Assembly (NCBI GenBank): GCA_965203805.1
Contig: OZ241917.1
Span: forward strand, 640,001 to 704,000
Source of the DNA: Candidatus Latescibacterota bacterium
GTDB taxonomy: Bacteria; Latescibacterota; UBA2968; GCA-2709665
DNA length: 64,000 nt
Direction: 5' to 3'
Under the pieces are notes generated by a model that worked only from the letters and a program-made list of their open reading frames with translations, did not search any database and had not been told where the DNA came from. The position numbers were made by a program, and so were the translations under genes. Positions 5,695 through 63,158 of this stretch are shown piece after piece (the first letter of the stretch is position 1; every line of letters begins with the position of its first letter).

Positions 5695-5834
5695 GTATGG
5701 TGTCCCGGAACAGGTTGCCTGACGTCGGCCGACGAGTCGCCCGACTGGCATTCTCCGTCCCGTCGACAAACTCAATGCAACCGGACTGGATCAACCGGCA
5801 ATCGAATGATGACGTTATTTCGGGGACACGACAC
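5695..5834 (+). mobile_element. MITE-like repeat family A, copy 1 (between nuoL and nuoM)
   Basis: Imperfect terminal inverted repeats GTATGGTGTCCCGGAA / TTCGGGGACACGACAC; left arm TGTCCCGGAACAGGTTGCCTGACGTCGGCCGACGAGTCGCC shared with other copies in the window. Confidence 0.75.
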
Positions 5835-9228: not shown

Positions 9229-9542
9229 GTGTCATGTCCCAAAACACCTCACCATTCGGCCGCCTGCCTGCGCAGTGCCCTGCCTGCCTGTGCGTGTACG
9301 CACGCCTGCCTGCGCAGTGCCCTGCGCAGTGCCCTGCGCTGCAGGCAGGCAGACAGGCGCTGCAGGCAGGCCGATTCATCCCGTCGCTCGACGTTGCTTG
9401 TGCTGGGCTTGTCGCAGTGCCATCGCTCGCCGACCTTGCCCACGTCGCCTGTGCTCTGGCGCCGGGTCCGGAGCCTCTCGAAGGATGCGAGCCAGGCGAC
9501 TCGACGGCCGAATTCAGGCAACTAATTTCCGGGACAGAATAC
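9229..9542 (-). mobile_element. MITE-like repeat family A, copy 2, carrying nested palindromic insertions
   Basis: Ends GTGTCATGTCCCAAAA and TTTCCGGGACAGAATAC; reverse complement aligns with copies at 30244 and 37396. Confidence 0.8.
9263..9370. repeat. Three nested CCTGCCTG...CAG(G/A)CAGG palindromic mini-elements (33+30+45 nt)
   Basis: Parses as outer 9263-9282+9358-9370, middle 9283-9304+9350-9357, inner 9305-9349; removing them restores the sequence seen in the copy near 37526. Confidence 0.85.
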
Positions 9543-29153: not shown

Positions 29154-30407
29154 TCAATCGATTCTGATTCGCTGAAGATCGAACGAGTCGACATTGTAGG
29201 GCTCGAAAGTATCGTCGTCGCCGGGTGTGTAGACCGCGACATAGAGATTCCGATCGTCGTTATCGATGACGATGCCGCGTTCTTTGAGATTTCCGGCCGC
29301 GAGAAGATAGTTCGTCTCCAGTTTTGTCCGCGTATCGAATTCAACGATAAATACACCCGCTTCATCGGCGTCTGTGGGCGCGACGAACAGACGTCGGCCG
29401 TCGCGGCTCAACGCAAGCCCCAGAGCGGGAGACTTGATTTCGTATTTGCCCGTCAGCGTCAGGTCGCGTGCGCTGAATACCCACAGATCCTCGACGTTGC
29501 CGCGGTCATCCGGGTCTGCCAACCCCAGAAAGAGATGGTCGTTGGAAGGTCCCATGACAAAATCGTTGATCCTGGCGGAGAAACTGAAGCGGGTTGACGT
29601 GGTCTCTGTCGTTGGGAAATGCCCTGAGGCGTCGTATTTCAAGACATTGTTCCTGGCGGCAACGAAGAGCTTACGGTCGCCGTGGTTCATCAGCAATGCG
29701 CCCGAACGCACATTCCCGCTGGTTTCCAGATTGTCTGCAATGGATACCGCAATCAGCAGCGGTTCATCCAGCGAGGACACATAGACAATCGAATCGGTCC
29801 CGCAGACGATGTGGGATATGTCATTCAGCGAAAACGGAACGGTCTTAAGTATGGTGAACGCATTCAGATCGATTATTTTCAGGTTCGATTCGCCGTTCAG
29901 TCCCACCACCAGACGGCGCTGGTCCGGAGTGACGTCGATGTCGATGGGGTGGGATCCTACCTGAAGGCTCCCTTCGACCACCATCTGTTTGCCAGTGTGA
30001 ATGCGGAGTATCCGGTTGTTTCCGTAGTCGGCAAGGTACAGATACGGCTGGACCGGATCCATGACCATATCAGAAATATTCACGCCAAGTTTCAGGATAT
30101 CGAAATCTCTGATTTCGTAAAACCGCTCCGGCTCTTCGTCGTCGAAATAGAGCGAACAACCCGACACGACAAGAGACATGGACAGGGCAAAAAAAAGGAA
30201 CCGGCCACTTGTTTTTCCAATGAGGCGAATGCCGGATCGCCAGGTGTTCAGTCCCGGAAACAGGTTGCCTGAACTCGGCCGTCGAGTCGCCAGGCTCGCA
30301 TCCTTCGACAGGCTCCGGACCCAGCGCCTGAGCGCAGGCGACCCGGGCAGGGTCGGCGAGCGAATGGTGAGGTATTTTTGGGACGGGACACTAGAGCGAG
30401 AAGACAT
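29154..30407 (-). CDS. YncE-like beta-propeller lipoprotein (true start probably near 30220; 5' part overlaps a MITE)
   Basis: Lipobox-like LVVSGC after a hydrophobic stretch; repeats VGSHPIDIDVTPD and LALSRDGRRLFV. Confidence 0.7.
   Translation of the reverse strand: MSSRSSVPSQKYLTIRSPTLPGSPALRRWVRSLSKDASLATRRPSSGNLFPGLNTWRSGIRLIGKTSGRFLFFALSMSLVVSGCSLYFDDEEPERFYEIRDFDILKLGVNISDMVMDPVQPYLYLADYGNNRILRIHTGKQMVVEGSLQVGSHPIDIDVTPDQRRLVVGLNGESNLKIIDLNAFTILKTVPFSLNDISHIVCGTDSIVYVSSLDEPLLIAVSIADNLETSGNVRSGALLMNHGDRKLFVAARNNVLKYDASGHFPTTETTSTRFSFSARINDFVMGPSNDHLFLGLADPDDRGNVEDLWVFSARDLTLTGKYEIKSPALGLALSRDGRRLFVAPTDADEAGVFIVEFDTRTKLETNYLLAAGNLKERGIVIDNDDRNLYVAVYTPGDDDTFEPYNVDSFDLQRIRID
30244..30391 (+). 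mobile_element. MITE-like repeat family A, copy 3
   Basis: GTGTTCAGTCCCGGAAA ... TTTTGGGACGGGACAC; abuts the TAG stop of the upstream gene. Confidence 0.78.
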
Positions 30408-31356
30408 AGGACGTGCTCAGTTCGATCAGATAGTCGGACGTCAGCTGGCTTTCGTTCACGTTTTGAAATACGACGATGGGCAGGTGAAATTCAACACTCA
30501 GATTGTCCAGGACATTAAGCCCCAGTTCCGGCGAAAGATACGTCCACTTCCCGCCGCGTTCTCTTGTAATCTTGCCGAACTGGTATCGATCCCTTGACGT
30601 GATCAGGTTTTTCAGACTCAAGCCGCCGAAGAACCAGCCGTCGCCGGCGTATTCCAGAGACAGGCTTGCGTGCAGTTCGTTTCCGTATTTGTAGCCGTAT
30701 ATGTTCTGCCGTGTGGTGATGCGGGTAAAGACGCCTCCGGAGACCGTCAGATCTTCAAGTCGTTGAACTACATTGAACGCGAGAATCGGATCCACGCTAC
30801 CCGATCCGATCTGAAGATTGTCGGAGAAACGTTCGCCGTATTGATCTAATGCATTAACGGATCCGTTTGCCAGCTTCAATCCAACCCCGACATTCATACC
30901 GGGAAAGCCCGCCTTTAGAGGTGCGGCGTAATTCAACATGACCACAATATCGCCCAGCCCGGAAGCATGCCGGACATACTTCCCTCCCTCATATTGATTG
31001 TGGTTCTGGCCGCGCAGCAGCACTTTTTCATTGGTCACGGAACGAAACGGGACGGCAAGCGCAAGACCGATGCGTCGGGTCACACCGTACGAGGCAAAGA
31101 TGGTGGTCGTGGCATTATCGGTACGCTCGCGATTGACGTTCGGGATCGCACGAGACCCGTAGTGGGGGTCGGACAGGAACTCGTAGCCGTAGTGAACGCT
31201 GAGCTTCAGGTGGTCCTGGACGCCCAGGCTGTTCTGCATCAGGCTTCCGCCCGGAAGCACGGGACGGCGTCAGCTGACGCCGCCTTGAGCGTTGGCGGCC
31301 GGGGCCGTGAAGGATTGCGTGATGATGAACAGACAGAACGCTGAGTACAAACGCAT
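30391..31356 (-). CDS. Outer-membrane beta-barrel 'transporter'-type protein with in-frame UGA (candidate selenoprotein)
   Basis: ATG 31356 with a GAGG RBS; signal peptide MRLYSAFCLFIITQSFTAPAANA-QGGVS, then TGA (31272-31270) in frame with the 289-aa ORF (GLGDI, QIGSGSVD, C-terminal YVFSL). Confidence 0.7.
31243..31258 (-). promoter_or_regulatory. Putative bacterial SECIS hairpin
   Basis: mRNA reads UGA + 11 nt + GCUUCC-GGGC-GGAAGC. Confidence 0.65.
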
Positions 31357-31525
31357 ACCGGGTTTCCTCAATCTCTGGATTTTGAACGCGAGGCTGGCGT
31401 CCGGGTTTCACGGGTTGAAATATACCTTACATGAGTCTGGATGGCAAGGCGGATTTTGATTCGTGACACGACATAGAGCCCAAATTTACATATCTTTACA
31501 TAGCCCGCCGTCGCGCTGTTTTTGC

Positions 31526-31598: not shown

Positions 31599-31672
31599 GC
31601 TCCCGTAGCTCAGCTGGATAGAGCAACTGCCTTCTAAGCAGTAGGTCGCAGGTTCGAGTCCTGCCGGGAGTG
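31599..31672 (+). tRNA. tRNA-Arg(TCT)
   Basis: Acceptor GCTCCCG/CGGGAGT, anticodon arm ACTGC-CT-TCT-AA-GCAGT, T-loop GGTTCGAGTCC; CCA not encoded. Confidence 0.96.
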
Positions 31673-31686
31673 TATTGTGGCAGTTC

Positions 31687-31837
31687 GCGTTCTGTCCCGG
31701 AAACAGGTTGGCTGATTTCGGCCGACGAGTCGCCCGACTCACAAAGCCCCTGAGTGAGTTGACCTGGGCAAGGTCGGCGAGCGAAGGGAACGCTGCGAGA
31801 CGGGATGAATGGTAAGATATTTCCGGGTCGGGAAGAT
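31687..31837 (+). mobile_element. MITE-like repeat family A, copy 4 (between the two tRNAs)
   Basis: TTCTGTCCCGGAAACAGGTTGG...GGCAAGGTCGGCGAGCGAA...GACGGGATGAAT...TTTCCGGG. Confidence 0.72.
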
Positions 31838-31841
31838 TAGT

Positions 31842-31919
31842 GGTGGGTGTAGCTCAGCTGGTTAGAGCGCCTGGTTGTGGCCCAGGAGGTCGGGGGTTCA
31901 AGTCCCCTCACTCACCCCA
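31842..31919 (+). tRNA. tRNA-His(GTG)
   Basis: G-1, acceptor GTGGGTG/CACTCAC, anticodon loop TT-GTG-GC, encoded CCA. Confidence 0.96.
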
Positions 31920-32027
31920 TTTTTTTCGCTATCTCTCGCCTTTGGTTCCCTCATTGGGTGTGAACCAGAGGTTTTTTCACGTCCGCCATTTTCCATGATT
32001 TCGGCCGATCACCCTCGAAGCGCGCCC

Positions 32028-33356
32028 ATGCGGGCGATGATTATCGGTCTGGATGGTACGCCATGCAGTCTGATCCACCGGCTGGTCTCCGACGGTCTGA
32101 TGCCGAATTTCGCGGACCTGCTGCAGGCCGGAACCCTGGCGGATATGGAGTCCGTATTGCCTACGGTTTCGTCGGTGGCCTGGGCGTCGCTGGTCACCGG
32201 ATGCAATCCGGGCAAGCACAATATCTATGGCTTCATCGACCGTGTGCCGCAGACCCATGAAATGTACATCCCGACGTCCGGAACGATGCGAGCGAGGCCC
32301 TGGACGGAAATTTTCAGCGGGATGGGCAGGCGTGTCTTTTCCATGGGCGTGCCGACGACCTACCCCCCAAAGCCGGTGAACGGCATTCAGATTTCAGGTT
32401 TTCTGGCGCCGGATCTGAACCGGGCGACCTATCCCCCCGAAGTGGCGCGCCGGCTGTCCGAAATGGGATACCGGATCGACATCGACGCGTGGCTTGCCCG
32501 CCGTGACACGGAGAAATTTCTGGATGATGTCTTCCAGGCTATGGAACGGCGGTTCGACGCGATGTTCGAGTTTCTGGACCAGGAGCCATGGGACCTGTTT
32601 GTCGCGCATGTTCTGGAAACGGACAGATTGCACCATTTTTTATGGGGCCTTGTTGAAGACGGCAGCGAGGCCTATCTGCCCTGGTTCAACCGGTTTTATG
32701 CCAGGGTTGACCGTGCCATCGGTGAAGTCGCGAACCGCTTTGACGACGACGTGCTGATGATGATTGTTTCCGACCATGGATTCTGCAAATTGAAGTATGA
32801 AGTGCATCTGAATTACTGGTTGCGCCAGGCCGGTTATCTGCGTTTCCCCGGAAAGACGGCAAATGGACTGCGCGACCTTGGACCTGACACGCGATGTTAT
32901 TCGCTATTGCCCGGGCGCATCTACCTGTCTTTGCGGGGCCGCGAACGCGGGGGATGCGTTGCGCCCGGTGCGGAGTACGAGTCGTTGAGACAGGACATCG
33001 CCGACGGACTCATGGAACTCCGTAACCCGGTAACGGGTGAACGTGTGATCCGGAGGATCTTCCGGCGTGAGGAACTCTACACCGGCGATGCCTCTGACCT
33101 GGCGCCGGATCTGGTGGCCATGCCGGTGGAGGGCTACGATTTGAAGGGCGGTTTCGATAAGGAGGAATTGATGGCGCGCGGTCCGGTCAACGGCACCCAT
33201 ACCTTCTCGGACGCGATGTTCTTCCTTAATCGCAAGGTGGATGTATTGCAGGACGTTCGCGTGATCGATGTGTTGCCCACACTCTTCGATGCAATTGGAC
33301 TGGAAATCCCCCGCGGTGTCGACGGGCGGTCCGTCGTTGCCGGCCCAGTGAACTGA
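32028..33356 (+). CDS. Alkaline phosphatase superfamily (nucleotide pyrophosphatase/phosphodiesterase)
   Basis: IIGLDG, PTVSSVAWASLVTG.NPGKHNIYGF, DRLHH, VSDHGF, GTH. Confidence 0.9.
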   Translation: MRAMIIGLDGTPCSLIHRLVSDGLMPNFADLLQAGTLADMESVLPTVSSVAWASLVTGCNPGKHNIYGFIDRVPQTHEMYIPTSGTMRARPWTEIFSGMGRRVFSMGVPTTYPPKPVNGIQISGFLAPDLNRATYPPEVARRLSEMGYRIDIDAWLARRDTEKFLDDVFQAMERRFDAMFEFLDQEPWDLFVAHVLETDRLHHFLWGLVEDGSEAYLPWFNRFYARVDRAIGEVANRFDDDVLMMIVSDHGFCKLKYEVHLNYWLRQAGYLRFPGKTANGLRDLGPDTRCYSLLPGRIYLSLRGRERGGCVAPGAEYESLRQDIADGLMELRNPVTGERVIRRIFRREELYTGDASDLAPDLVAMPVEGYDLKGGFDKEELMARGPVNGTHTFSDAMFFLNRKVDVLQDVRVIDVLPTLFDAIGLEIPRGVDGRSVVAGPVN

Positions 33357-49605: not shown

Positions 49606-49670
49606 GTGCGCCGTGAAAAGGCGCGGATCTTCAGTGGGTGAAAGTCCCAACCCGACAAGGGTTGCTTCAG

Positions 49671-49700
49671 CCTGCCTGCGCCGGATGCTCGGCAGGCAGG
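49671..49700. repeat. CCTGCCTG...CAGGCAGG palindromic mini-element (30 nt)
   Basis: CCTGCCTGCGCCGGATGCTCGGCAGGCAGG inside the intron. Confidence 0.8.
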
Positions 49701-49855
49701 TCGGTAGCAATCGGAGCAGGGACGTAGGCAACGAAATCTCTGAAGCCTCCGGTGTAGAGGGTCGCAAGGCGACTCGGCGAGTATGCGGGCCGAAACGTGA
49801 GTGAACGCTGAGCAGGCCTGGAAAGAGACAGCAACGCGAGCATCCAGCGGTCCCG

Positions 49856-49961: not shown

Positions 49962-50396
49962 CGGGAAGCCCCAGCGGTGGTGCAGGGACACCAACCGGAC
50001 GCCCGTGAGGGACAGGCCGGGCCGCATGGGGTGGCGGACAGGCTCGTAGTACCCGTGAAGCCGGGTAACGCCGGTGGAGGGAAGGGGCCTGACTTCGGAT
50101 GTGCTTGTGAAGGGGACAACGGTCGGGAGAGTGGCGCAAGCCTATAACCTCCTCCAAAAGTAGACGAGGCGACTCCAGAACAAGCTTGGGCTTCAGGTGA
50201 AGCTGTCCGGGCAGCGCGGTCAGCGTGTGTCTGAAGGCGACGTCCGTCGGAGAGCCGGATGCGGGAAAACCGCACGTCCGGTTCGACGAGCGGGATGTGG
50301 AAACGGGGCACGGAGGGGCTATTGAGGCACCGCCAGACGAAAGGGGCGGAAACGGATAGGCCACTCCTAAACTACCGCGCCACATCCCGACTCTAC

Positions 50397-59730: not shown

Positions 59731-61575
<1,845 letters not shown>

Positions 61576-61581
61576 ATATAG

Positions 61582-61609
61582 AATATAATAAACTTGGGCG
61601 TCTTGTCAA
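61582..61609 (-). promoter_or_regulatory. Promoter for HTH-hsdM, probably leaderless
   Basis: Minus strand TTGACA(61609-61604)-16 nt-TATATT(61587-61582); ATG 6 nt later with no RBS. Confidence 0.6.
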
Positions 61610-61776
61610 ATACGAATCAGTCTCGCCTCATTTTGGGCAGAATGAGGTGTTTACATTGAGAGATTCAAGGTCAGGATACGGCCAGGGGATGGAATTGCCA
61701 AGCGTGAAGGAGGGGATAATCGCCTGAATCGTATACACGGACAAAACGCGGGGCAGGGGAGTGTATAGGATCGCCG

Positions 61777-63009
61777 TCAGGACGGCAGAGCGGTCTTCTT
61801 TTGGAATACCGCGTTCCAGTCAATGCGGCCGGTGAACTGCATGGCCGCGAACAGGGTGGCGACGCACAGAATGGTAATGGCGAGGCCGGTATAGCCGGAG
61901 AAGAAAAACGAGTAGGAGAAGAGCACGAGATAGATGAACTGGCCCGCGGCGGTCTCGACGAACGCGAGGCGCGTGCCCACAACGAGGCGCATGTACGACG
62001 TCACGAGCAAAATCGAAACCGCGGAGGCCAGGACGAAGGCATAGTGAATCAGCATGTGGTCGACCAGGTAGGCCAGCAACAGATGGAAGCTGAAGAAGGC
62101 GGCACCGATGAAAAAGTAGTGCATAGGGTGCAGGTCGACGCCCCGCACCGTGGCGAAGATAAAGAGCAGAAAGAAGAACAGAAAGAGGGATACGGGCGCC
62201 GCGAAGACGACCTGCTGAACCCAGGGCCCGGGGTTGAGGCGGGCGGGGAAGATCAGGCCCAGATCGACGCCGGTGAGTAGATGTTCGTAGCGCCAGGTCA
62301 GGCGCCATCCCTCGTCTGCCCGGGTTTTCGACACGGGCGACACGCTGTCTTCCGGAAAGTCGATCTCGTCGAAGTCGGTCCGCATCACCAGATTGAAGTC
62401 CGACACCTGGTTGACGTCATCGCCGAAACTGTACCGCCATTGGTCCATGCCCTGCGAACGGTAGGATACGTGGACAGGAAGTTCCTGACCTGGCGCGAGA
62501 TGGAGGCGCTGGACCAGATGGCCGGATCGGACGGGCACCTCGGCGATGGCTCGACCGTCGACACTCAGGATAATATCGTCGTACACGGCGCGGCGCGCGG
62601 GCAAAGGCAGGTCGAAGTAAAGATTCAGGATCCGGTTTGTGGGGTTGGCCAGCGTGTACGTGGCGGCGAATCTGACCCGATACGTGGAATACCATAACAG
62701 GCCCTTTCGCCGGTGCTTGAGGGAAAGGTCGACTTCAATGCGGCTGGCGTTGAGGCTCAGAAAGTACTTTTCGTCCACCGTGCGCGTGACGGACTCGCCC
62801 TCCGGGCCGGGTTCGACCCGGGTGACGCGGTCCAGCCAGTACACCTGCGGGGCCTGCTGTGTCTGGGCCGTGCCCCAGAGTTGGCCCACAGAGTCTTTGA
62901 GTTTGTTGTCCTGTCGCAACGTGCGCTGGTGAATGGTCTGGCCCAGGATGAGCCACGCGACCGAAATGCATAAAAAAATGAAACCGATGGCGGCGATGCG
63001 CTGGATCAT
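61777..63009 (-). CDS. CreD-like inner membrane protein
   Basis: N-terminal TM, periplasmic domain, C-terminal TM bundle with LHPMHY...FHLLLAYL.DH. Confidence 0.7.
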   Translation of the reverse strand: MIQRIAAIGFIFLCISVAWLILGQTIHQRTLRQDNKLKDSVGQLWGTAQTQQAPQVYWLDRVTRVEPGPEGESVTRTVDEKYFLSLNASRIEVDLSLKHRRKGLLWYSTYRVRFAATYTLANPTNRILNLYFDLPLPARRAVYDDIILSVDGRAIAEVPVRSGHLVQRLHLAPGQELPVHVSYRSQGMDQWRYSFGDDVNQVSDFNLVMRTDFDEIDFPEDSVSPVSKTRADEGWRLTWRYEHLLTGVDLGLIFPARLNPGPWVQQVVFAAPVSLFLFFFLLFIFATVRGVDLHPMHYFFIGAAFFSFHLLLAYLVDHMLIHYAFVLASAVSILLVTSYMRLVVGTRLAFVETAAGQFIYLVLFSYSFFFSGYTGLAITILCVATLFAAMQFTGRIDWNAVFQKKTALPS

Positions 63010-63158
63010 TAGAACTCCCGGGCTTCGAGACGAGAAGTGGTTTTAGTTTGAACGCGTCGTCTGAAACGGAGTTCCATCGATGCCCGACAGGAGCATTCCG
63101 CGCACGTTGCAACGTATCCGGGAAACTGACCCGAAGCTCACGGAGCGATGCACGAAGT

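Follow-up and report, generated by a model that had tools for sequence, protein, structure and literature searches.

A predicted outer-membrane selenoprotein with selenocysteine near its mature N-terminus in Latescibacterota and other FCB-group bacteria

We analysed a stretch of 64,000 nucleotides from a Candidatus Latescibacterota bacterium (assembly GCA_965203805.1, contig OZ241917.1, positions 640,001 to 704,000 of the forward strand), referred to here as the window. Its minus strand carries, at 31356..30391, what is in our judgment very probably one exported selenoprotein gene, this being overall the best explanation of the locus. The gene combines a signal peptide, an in-frame TGA predicted to specify selenocysteine (Sec), a hairpin of the selenocysteine insertion sequence (SECIS) type and an outer-membrane beta-barrel, and it is followed by the gene of a beta-propeller lipoprotein (Table 1). 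The frame opens at ATG 31354-31356, with GAGGA ahead of it, and runs on the minus strand through MRLYSAFCLFIITQSFTAPAANA and QGGVS to the TGA. Past this codon the same frame reads RRPVLPGG and continues as RRPVLPGGSLMQ..., with no further stop until the TAG at 30391-30393. The mature protein is predicted to start with QGGVSURRPVLPGG, and it lacks Cys, so that Sec would be its sole thiol or selenol.

The list of open reading frames (ORFs) for the window holds only a 289-amino-acid piece of the barrel that begins at GTG 31260 and lacks a signal peptide. A preliminary description of this DNA, made from the letters alone, had pointed out this signal-less ORF and the upstream, in-frame succession of an ATG at 31356, a signal sequence and QGGVS-TGA-RRPVLPGG, and its coordinates proved exact. 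It had further proposed a perfect hairpin, GCUUCC-GGGC-GGAAGC, 11 nucleotides past the TGA, which we find at 31243-31258, and a Sec at about residue 6 of a mature barrel, which agrees with residue 29 of the precursor being mature residue 6. Its expectation that automatic annotation would miss the full gene is borne out by the database relatives, which are mostly called as truncated proteins.

Table 1. Coordinates of the selenoprotein gene, its parts and adjoining features in the window.
Feature	Positions	Strand	Remarks
Full selenoprotein gene (predicted)	30391..31356	-	Signal peptide, Sec and 12-stranded COG4313/PF13557-type barrel; 321 codons + TAG; translated with TGA=U
Signal peptide, residues 1-23, MRLYSAFCLFIITQSFTAPAANA	31288..31356	-	A-x-A cleavage motif ahead of Q24; read from sequence
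In-frame TGA, predicted Sec codon, residue 29 / mature residue 6	31270..31272	-	Conserved in 33/33 and 47/47; unchanged in 4/4 runs
Spacer from UGA to hairpin, 11 nt, Arg-Arg-Pro-Val codons	31259..31269	-	Length invariant; gap-free in 45 aligned segments
SECIS hairpin (predicted)	31243..31258	-	Stem G31258-C31253 / G31248-C31243; loop GGGC 31249-31252; Leu-Pro-Gly-Gly-Ser codons
Dispersed repeat of ~120 nt between barrel and propeller genes	30244..30365	.	38 further blastn matches in the genome
Downstream partner, 7-bladed beta-propeller lipoprotein	29154..30230	-	Lipobox LVVSGC, Cys codon 30156-30158, then SLYFDDEEP

Conservation of the in-frame TGA

We searched 61 related genomes in six frames. 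The barrel gene is present in each of the 15 genomes of the genus, the present genome being one of them, and also in a second genus. Each genome of the genus has two copies, one from a set of orthologues (80-94% identity) and one from a set of paralogues (50-54%). Exactly one in-frame stop, a TGA, is present in 33 of the 33 matches that cover residue 29 (17 genomes, two genera); four further matches stop short of this residue and lie outside the count. A scan of one genome per GTDB species yielded 47 loci, and the TGA stands at the same place in every one of them, at identities down to 34%. These loci are labelled Latescibacterota (some 'Gemmatimonadota'), KSB1, Calditrichaceae, Fidelibacterota and Marinimicrobia/Neomarinimicrobiota, that is, five phyla of the FCB group. 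Within the phylum the family is scattered, with 17 carriers among 168 genomes, all in two genera, and it occurs in sponge, coral and marine metagenomes.

The flanks of the TGA are near-invariant, with Q[GP]G[VI]S before it and RRPxLPGG after it, and the signal peptide is variable. At every homologous locus, a Met, a basic residue and a hydrophobic stretch of varying sequence lie in frame ahead of the TGA. Of 74 rows, 46 satisfy a strict regular expression for signal peptides; by eye, the layout of the remaining 28 is no different apart from interruptions by P, Q, H or N.

Could the gene simply be broken? A lone in-frame stop is what usually marks a pseudogene, and annotation pipelines do treat the gene as truncated. 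A nonsense mutation in a decaying barrel gene, or an assembly error, is nevertheless barely conceivable here. The same TGA recurs in 49 distinct coding sequences from the five phyla, and every genome of the genus has it in both paralogues; further stops and frameshifts are absent, and the protein is strongly conserved, with a mean column identity of 50-58%. A contaminating contig shared among the assemblies is excluded by their divergence (34-94% identity). The preliminary description had asked whether the codon would hold up in raw reads. In two DNA runs from other studies and two RNA-library runs, positions 31270-31272 show no other letter, which rules out a read error. Contigs assembled from the two RNA libraries span the codon (X18, 31244-31394, with no differences; X19, 31110-31369).

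Most of the 72 database relatives are truncated calls of 276-289 residues that start just past the TGA, and signal-less calls of 282-289 residues carry the label 'transporter'. These calls are the natural argument for taking the TGA as a true stop, with a 28-residue leader peptide followed by a separate barrel initiated at GTG 31260 or at ATG 31239-31241, and with the hairpin serving as an attenuator or coupling element. Gene callers yield exactly such a split, and TGA is the commonest stop in this genome. We consider two separate products highly improbable all the same. A truncated barrel without a signal peptide could not reach the outer membrane; an outer-membrane barrel needs such a peptide, and it is supplied only via read-through, which supports read-through itself. 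All 47 loci keep the upstream frame, its signal-peptide character and QGGVS in register with the barrel despite drift of the signal sequence, and the internal starts are not conserved, 17 of 74 rows having Ile, Leu, Ala or Ser codons in place of the Val codon (GTG, GTA or GTT). The geometry of the hairpin, moreover, equals that of the SelD SECIS element of the same genome.

A few full-length database proteins have Trp at the site (P0037, P0038, P0059, P0079 and P0168). This Trp is a gene-calling artefact that arises under another genetic code, because the locus L085, whose N-terminus is near-identical to that of P0038, has TGA. Trp in homologues was among the outcomes that the preliminary description had listed as speaking against Sec; the Trp of these entries is TGA translated under another code and not a real Trp.

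The hairpin and the decoding of the UGA codon

By itself, the hairpin GCUUCC/GGGC/GGAAGC has a folding energy of -8.8 kcal/mol, and its conserved core consists of the inner 5 bp. We aligned 45 distinct segments of 60 nucleotides. The stretch from TGA to hairpin has no gaps in any of them, and pairing is complete in the core, with 225 of 225 cells paired over its five positions. Where the third base of Leu meets that of the second Gly codon, the pair is CG in 32 segments, UA in 11, AU in one and UG in one, with zero mismatches. The covariation score of 0.226 compares with 0.113 after shuffling, is reached by none of 500 shuffles and exceeds all six slid registers. Both pair types, CG and UA, are present within one genus and within low-GC genomes. 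The preliminary description had proposed conservation of the hairpin as a test, and the hairpin is indeed conserved, with compensatory changes. The consensus of the element is CUNCC-NGGN-GGNAG, 11-12 nucleotides past the UGA.

These features are in keeping with the bacterial SECIS consensus model of Zhang and Gladyshev, as summarised in excerpts of PMC13188914. Set against the model in that summary, the loop has 4 nucleotides, with G at loop position 2 in 45 of 45 segments, and the stem has 5-6 bp; the distance of 17 nucleotides from UGA to loop also fits. Of the 45 hairpins, 39 reach the model's criterion of a minimum free energy (MFE) of at most -7.5 kcal/mol on their own, and 43 do so with 42 nucleotides of context. 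No bacterial SECIS family of Rfam was matched at gathering thresholds or in a permissive scan of 31150-31400, which returned only noise. A palindrome around the TGA, GGCGGCGUCAGCUGACGCCGUC, was considered as part of the element and rejected: it dominates the single-sequence MFE structure, but it is not conserved in other phyla and is dropped from the RNAalifold consensus.

The codons that encode the hairpin are restricted as well. Across the 49 distinct coding sequences, the Leu codon is CTT, CTC or CTA only (13, 35 and 1), mirrored by GGA, GGG and GGT for Gly (12, 36 and 1), and the Ser after Gly-Gly is AGC or AGT only; at another invariant Leu of the gene, six codons occur. The seven conserved codons that follow the UGA have a normalised synonymous entropy of 0.62, compared with 0.86 for 86 other conserved codons. 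One may argue that the hairpin is a mere by-product of a functionally conserved LPGGS peptide rather than an RNA element, given that any CTN-CCN-GGN-GGN-AGY string can self-pair and that RRPxLPGG is conserved as amino acids. This is extremely improbable in view of a Leu that is never TTR or CTG and a Ser that is never TCN, unlike other conserved Leu and Ser codons in the gene, and of two free third positions that covary without a mismatch in the 45 sequences. The motif also decays in the Ser-containing variants, to LLGG in P0017 and RHP in P0019, as expected if the RNA held the peptide in place. Because of the pairing, covariation and codon restriction seen across sequences, the LPGGS peptide is largely the protein shadow of an RNA element.

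Decoding of UGA as Sec requires dedicated machinery, and the preliminary description had suggested looking for selA, selB, selC and selD; all four are in the genome. The genes selA (E 4.6e-143) and selB (370.7 bits, above cut-off) are clustered with tRNA-Sec at genome positions 1837979-1841270, and selD is itself interrupted by an in-frame TGA in the expected TCG-U-AAK motif. Of the carrier genomes, the 5 tested from other phyla all have SelA, and so do 16 of the 17 within the phylum; the remaining one is an 80%-complete assembly.

The UGA might instead be read through by other means, either by near-cognate suppression (inserting Trp, Cys or Arg) or by reassignment of the codon as in genetic codes 4 and 25. 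The Trp in the five database proteins named above and the lack of homologues with Cys in the exact column could be cited in favour. The Trp calls, however, stem from loci with TGA in the DNA and the standard layout (L085 corresponds to P0038). Of 2494 frames with 400 codons or more, 1407 end in TGA, which makes it the commonest stop, and SelA, SelB and other conserved genes have no internal TGA. A full Sec machinery is present, and a covarying structure at SelB-type spacing has no role in plain suppression. We therefore regard non-Sec read-through as very unlikely. The central proposal of the preliminary description, that UGA is read as Sec by means of an fdhF-type SECIS element, is supported by the conservation of the TGA, the covariation of the hairpin, the sel genes and the independent runs, and decoding of the barrel-gene UGA as selenocysteine is in our view highly likely.

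In-frame TGA codons with hairpins were also noted elsewhere in the genome. One, at 4220262, lies in a peroxiredoxin-like context (...FFRGTW-TGA-...) and another, at 4815597, follows ...GDYVYP-TGA-PADQ...; both may belong to selenoprotein genes. ARAGORN additionally reported a tRNA-like gene of undetermined identity with the two-letter anticodon '(ca)' at genome positions 503963-504048.

Barrel fold, partner genes and a proposed role

The protein matches Pfam PF13557 (Phenol_MetA_deg) over residues 78-291 with 25.5 bits, against a cut-off of 22 (E 1.6e-5). An AlphaFold2 model of the barrel (mean predicted local distance difference test, pLDDT, 81.9; predicted template modelling score, pTM, 0.78) superimposes on chain C of 4rl8 with Z 25.4 and a root-mean-square deviation of 2.3 over 251 of 268 residues, and Foldseek returns this match at E 1.1e-11. 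The modelled barrel thus matches the 12-stranded COG4313-type channel fold. According to excerpts of PMC4493636, the N-terminal ~14 residues of Pput2725, the protein of entry 4RL8, fold into the lumen at its periplasmic end, so that the channel is almost closed. Residue 36 of our model aligns with residue 1 of the 4rl8 chain, and residues 36-48 match its N-terminus, at pLDDT 47-74. Since residue 36 is equivalent to residue 1 of 4rl8, the predicted protein would have a 12-residue extension (Q24-P35) ahead of the plug-equivalent segment.

What partners does the barrel have? The preliminary description had noted that the gene is co-oriented with that of a beta-propeller lipoprotein, and this adjacency is real: a propeller gene lies directly downstream of the barrel gene in 32 of 47 loci, across all phyla. 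The same description had suggested an uptake module with Sec as a plausible metal-binding or redox site, a role that stays conjectural. The lipobox Cys is invariant in 14 of 14 propellers and is followed by an acidic SLYxDDEEP stretch. The model of the propeller has seven blades (pLDDT 84.4, pTM 0.85). Its Foldseek matches are generic only and include the YVTN protein 1l0q and YncE 3vgz, and no NCBIfam model scores above its curated cut-off. A function taken from these matches was rejected: the label 'YncE family' came at 0.92, with recognition below the benchmark, and from generic folds no function follows. The true start of the propeller gene is uncertain. The sole in-frame ATG ahead of the lipobox gives a signal peptide of 7 residues, and ATT 30228-30230 aligns with the ATG of orthologues. 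A listed ORF of 417 residues from ATG 30407 passes through the repeat element between the two genes, so that its N-terminus is spurious. Further copies of this repeat are found in the window at ~9423-9542, ~5702-5757 and ~31689-31743; contig depth over 30244-30365 is ~20-fold higher in the metagenome runs, and the repeat is not part of the selenoprotein system.

The second recurrent partner is a membrane-anchored, TlpA-like thioredoxin (Redoxin/AhpC-TSA, with WATWCxxC), encoded directly upstream of the barrel in 24 of 47 loci. These comprise loci in KSB1, Calditrichaceae and Fidelibacterota as well as every paralogue locus of the genus. In the present genome the paralogous locus, at 60901-63067, consists of a thioredoxin gene (60901-61296), a second Sec barrel (61344-62285) and the gene of an S-adenosylmethionine (SAM)-dependent methyltransferase with a weak TehB-like match (62330-63067). 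The paralogue locus of relatives continues with a Glu_synthase-domain protein, and this order is conserved in 13 of 47 loci. The genome holds one thioredoxin and one propeller of these types. In the genus, the ancestral module of thioredoxin, barrel and propeller thus appears split over two paralogous loci, the copy in the window having barrel and propeller.

A large FG-GAP/ASPIC-UnbV protein with a type IX secretion sorting tail is encoded nearby in 16 of 47 loci (KSB1, Fidelibacterota, Marinimicrobia), for example at L063:1325-3157 and L084:1670-3421. No metal genes were found among the annotated neighbours of the Sec barrel. Two tRNA genes on the plus strand of the window, at 31599-31672 and 31843-31916, lie divergently upstream of the selenoprotein gene, and the latter overlaps the start of a listed ORF, 31875-33356, of the type I phosphodiesterase family. 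Farther along, Rfam detects group II intron domains on the plus strand at 49632-49800 (RF02003, 88.5 bits) and 50250-50396 (RF00029, 45.8 bits).

Barrel relatives without Sec were compared as well. An exhaustive profile-free search returned 417 representatives, only 5 of them at E <= 1e-30. Among the 150 that were listed, 47 have CC and 12 have CxC in the first residues past the signal peptide. Typical forms are AQ-T/S/G-CC-S/T-GG-x-P and Q-T-C-S-C-GG, and many others have C-G-x-x-x-C. Alignment of the CC family with the Sec family by hhalign gives a probability of 100 and E 1.8e-47 over 293 columns. It places Q on Q and the Pro at Q+8 on Pro, with CC at Q+2/Q+3 and Sec at Q+5. In 67 of 80 loci with Q-[TSG]-C-C barrels (L096-L175, metagenome contigs), a DUF3179 lipoprotein with a conserved YCPLT motif is encoded directly downstream, and of the 65 such loci with enough flank only 3 are without it. 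DUF3179 is itself catalogued as a UxxC/T selenoprotein family (PMC13188914, Table 1). The two-gene module of Q-x-C-C barrel and DUF3179 appears to be undescribed.

Most known selenoproteins have exact Cys forms (PMC12013277). Such forms are customary but not a requirement. The preliminary description had expected Cys or TGA at the aligned position in homologues; the TGA part was confirmed throughout, in the 33 matches and the 47 loci, and Cys in the exact column was not found among the proteins inspected. In the few near relatives that keep RRP without the TGA, the residue at the Sec position is Ser (P0017, P0019, P0090) or Glu (P0099); two of them, P0017 and P0019, are singletons, each from one contig. 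A weaker correspondence does hold, in that the chalcogen motif lies within the same eight-residue arm.

Taken together, we propose the following model. The ribosome would start at ATG 31356 and make a cleavable signal peptide. SelB carrying Sec-tRNA(Sec), recruited by the in-frame SECIS hairpin, would decode UGA 31270-31272 as Sec, and translation would go on into the 12-stranded COG4313/PF13557-type outer-membrane barrel. Cleavage of the signal peptide would leave a mature protein with Sec at residue 6. By analogy with COG4313 channels, this residue would sit on a flexible 12-residue extension of the plug, at the periplasmic mouth of the channel or in its lumen, and could act as a redox-active or thiophilic capture residue, the counterpart of the Q-x-C-C and C-x-C pairs in the sister families. 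The co-encoded TlpA-like thioredoxin may keep Sec reduced or recycle it, and the downstream lipoprotein propeller presumably works together with the barrel. To this functional picture, a Sec arm at the periplasmic mouth or lumen that serves as a redox or capture site and is serviced by the thioredoxin, we give roughly an even chance of being right.

A more specific version, which we think unlikely, would make the Sec arm an outer-membrane chalcogen gate. The arm would capture a thiophilic substrate as a covalent Se-X adduct at the channel mouth, the thioredoxin would hand on or release the substrate, and the propeller lipoprotein would serve as a receptor cap. Candidate substrates are selenite or elemental selenium, polysulfide and a soft metal, and the SAM methyltransferase downstream of the paralogue, with its weak TehB-like match, would fit chalcogen handling. 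According to PMC13188914, prokaryotes have no known specific transporter of high affinity for Se. Were selenium the substrate, a gate of this kind would be the first specific system for acquiring selenium at the bacterial outer membrane.

Several observations weigh against the interpretation as a whole or against parts of it. The Sec assignment is a prediction from sequence. Folded as a single sequence of 76 nucleotides, the region gives z = -1.68, and 13 of 200 shuffles fold as well. The hairpin is short, and its combination with TGA is common in this GC-rich genome: a scan of the 5.87 Mb for TGA, 10-13 nucleotides, a 6-bp stem and an NG[GT]N loop returned 130 sites, 49 of which have an open frame on both sides. 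As the single sequence is no better than chance, the significance of the hairpin lies in its conservation and covariation, and the covariation could partly reflect differences in GC content between phyla. Across the phylum, 131 of 168 genomes have SelA, so that its co-occurrence with the barrel is consistent with Sec decoding without being discriminating. RNA-library contigs across the TGA do not prove transcription. No Cys was found in the exact Sec column (12 of the 72 database matches read, 24 proteins aligned), and the sister family has its Cys pair 2-3 residues nearer the N-terminus. As to function, the propeller has no conserved Cys beyond its lipid-anchor Cys, and the barrel copy in the window has no thioredoxin gene beside it. 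The N-terminal 20 residues of the barrel model have a pLDDT of 47-64, and with such low confidence the position of Sec relative to the lumen can only be inferred.

Novelty and relation to known systems

The barrel protein (P0001) matches no NCBIfam model at E <= 0.01. Table 1 of PMC13188914, a 2026 catalogue of 119 selenoprotein families, has no PF13557/COG4313 entry, and in the full-text literature we found no paper describing such a selenoprotein, although supplementary tables (for example Table S2 of PMC12013277) might list candidates. The family is widespread and new to both NCBIfam and the 2026 catalogue. It is systematically mis-annotated as a signal-less, truncated protein. Homology pipelines need exact Sec/Cys pairs and, by their own authors' account, miss families that have none (PMC12013277); the present family was missed probably because its Sec column has no exact Cys counterpart, and such pipelines have a blind spot for families of this kind in general. 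The SECIS element encoded by LPGGS offers a simple signature for re-annotation. The predicted placement of Sec, in the cell envelope and on the plug arm of a COG4313 channel, is unusual.

A parallel to the barrel lies in its own sister family. Like the Sec barrel, Q-x-C-C barrels have a signal peptide, a Q with a chalcogen motif within 5 residues and Pro at Q+8, and the gene directly downstream encodes a lipoprotein of 340-380 residues. Their motif, however, is a vicinal Cys pair at Q+2/Q+3, whereas the Sec barrel has a single Sec, at Q+5, and their partner is DUF3179 (with a conserved CPLT) in place of the propeller and the TlpA-like thioredoxin; the neighbour sets of the two kinds of barrel gave 0 cross-matches. 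The occurrence of a Sec barrel on the one hand and of the Q-x-C-C barrel/DUF3179 pair on the other suggests a possible general principle of this large channel superfamily, in which a chalcogen motif at the mature N-terminus is combined with a dedicated lipoprotein or thioredoxin partner.

As a recoding signal, the element resembles that of E. coli fdhF in being an in-frame stem-loop past the UGA with a small loop and G at position 2. The fdhF SECIS has an 11-nucleotide spacing and a GGUC loop. Compared with bacterial SECIS elements of this type, the one in the barrel gene is very short, and RNAalifold shows no conserved lower stem. The SelD SECIS of the same genome, UGA followed by 11 nucleotides and CAGUCC-GGUC-GGACUG, equals it in spacing, stem length and loop type.

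Among channels, Pput2725 of Pseudomonas putida (4RL8) offers a guide to the N-terminus: the segment before strand 1 in our model would correspond to its lumen-occluding N-terminus. The two proteins share 12% identity, and the mature N-terminus of the barrel protein is 12 residues longer and carries the predicted Sec, whereas no Cys or Sec motif is described for Pput2725 in the excerpts of PMC4493636. Their contexts differ as well, with aromatic catabolism genes around Pput2725 and thioredoxin and propeller lipoprotein genes around the Sec barrel. The amyloid secretion channel FapF (5O65) is the best Foldseek match (E 5e-14) and superimposes on the model with Z 23.5, but identity is 14-16%, FapF has no Sec, and no fap genes were found among the annotated neighbours of the Sec barrel.

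Outer-membrane selenoproteins have been published before, namely the GSU2204/MtrB-PioB family barrel (NF041027) and the FCYXU-type TonB-dependent receptor (NF049945; both in PMC13188914, Table 1). Like the protein described here, they are exported outer-membrane beta-barrels with a predicted Sec. They belong to unrelated barrel families, and the Sec barrel is set apart from them by a lone Sec at its mature N-terminus.

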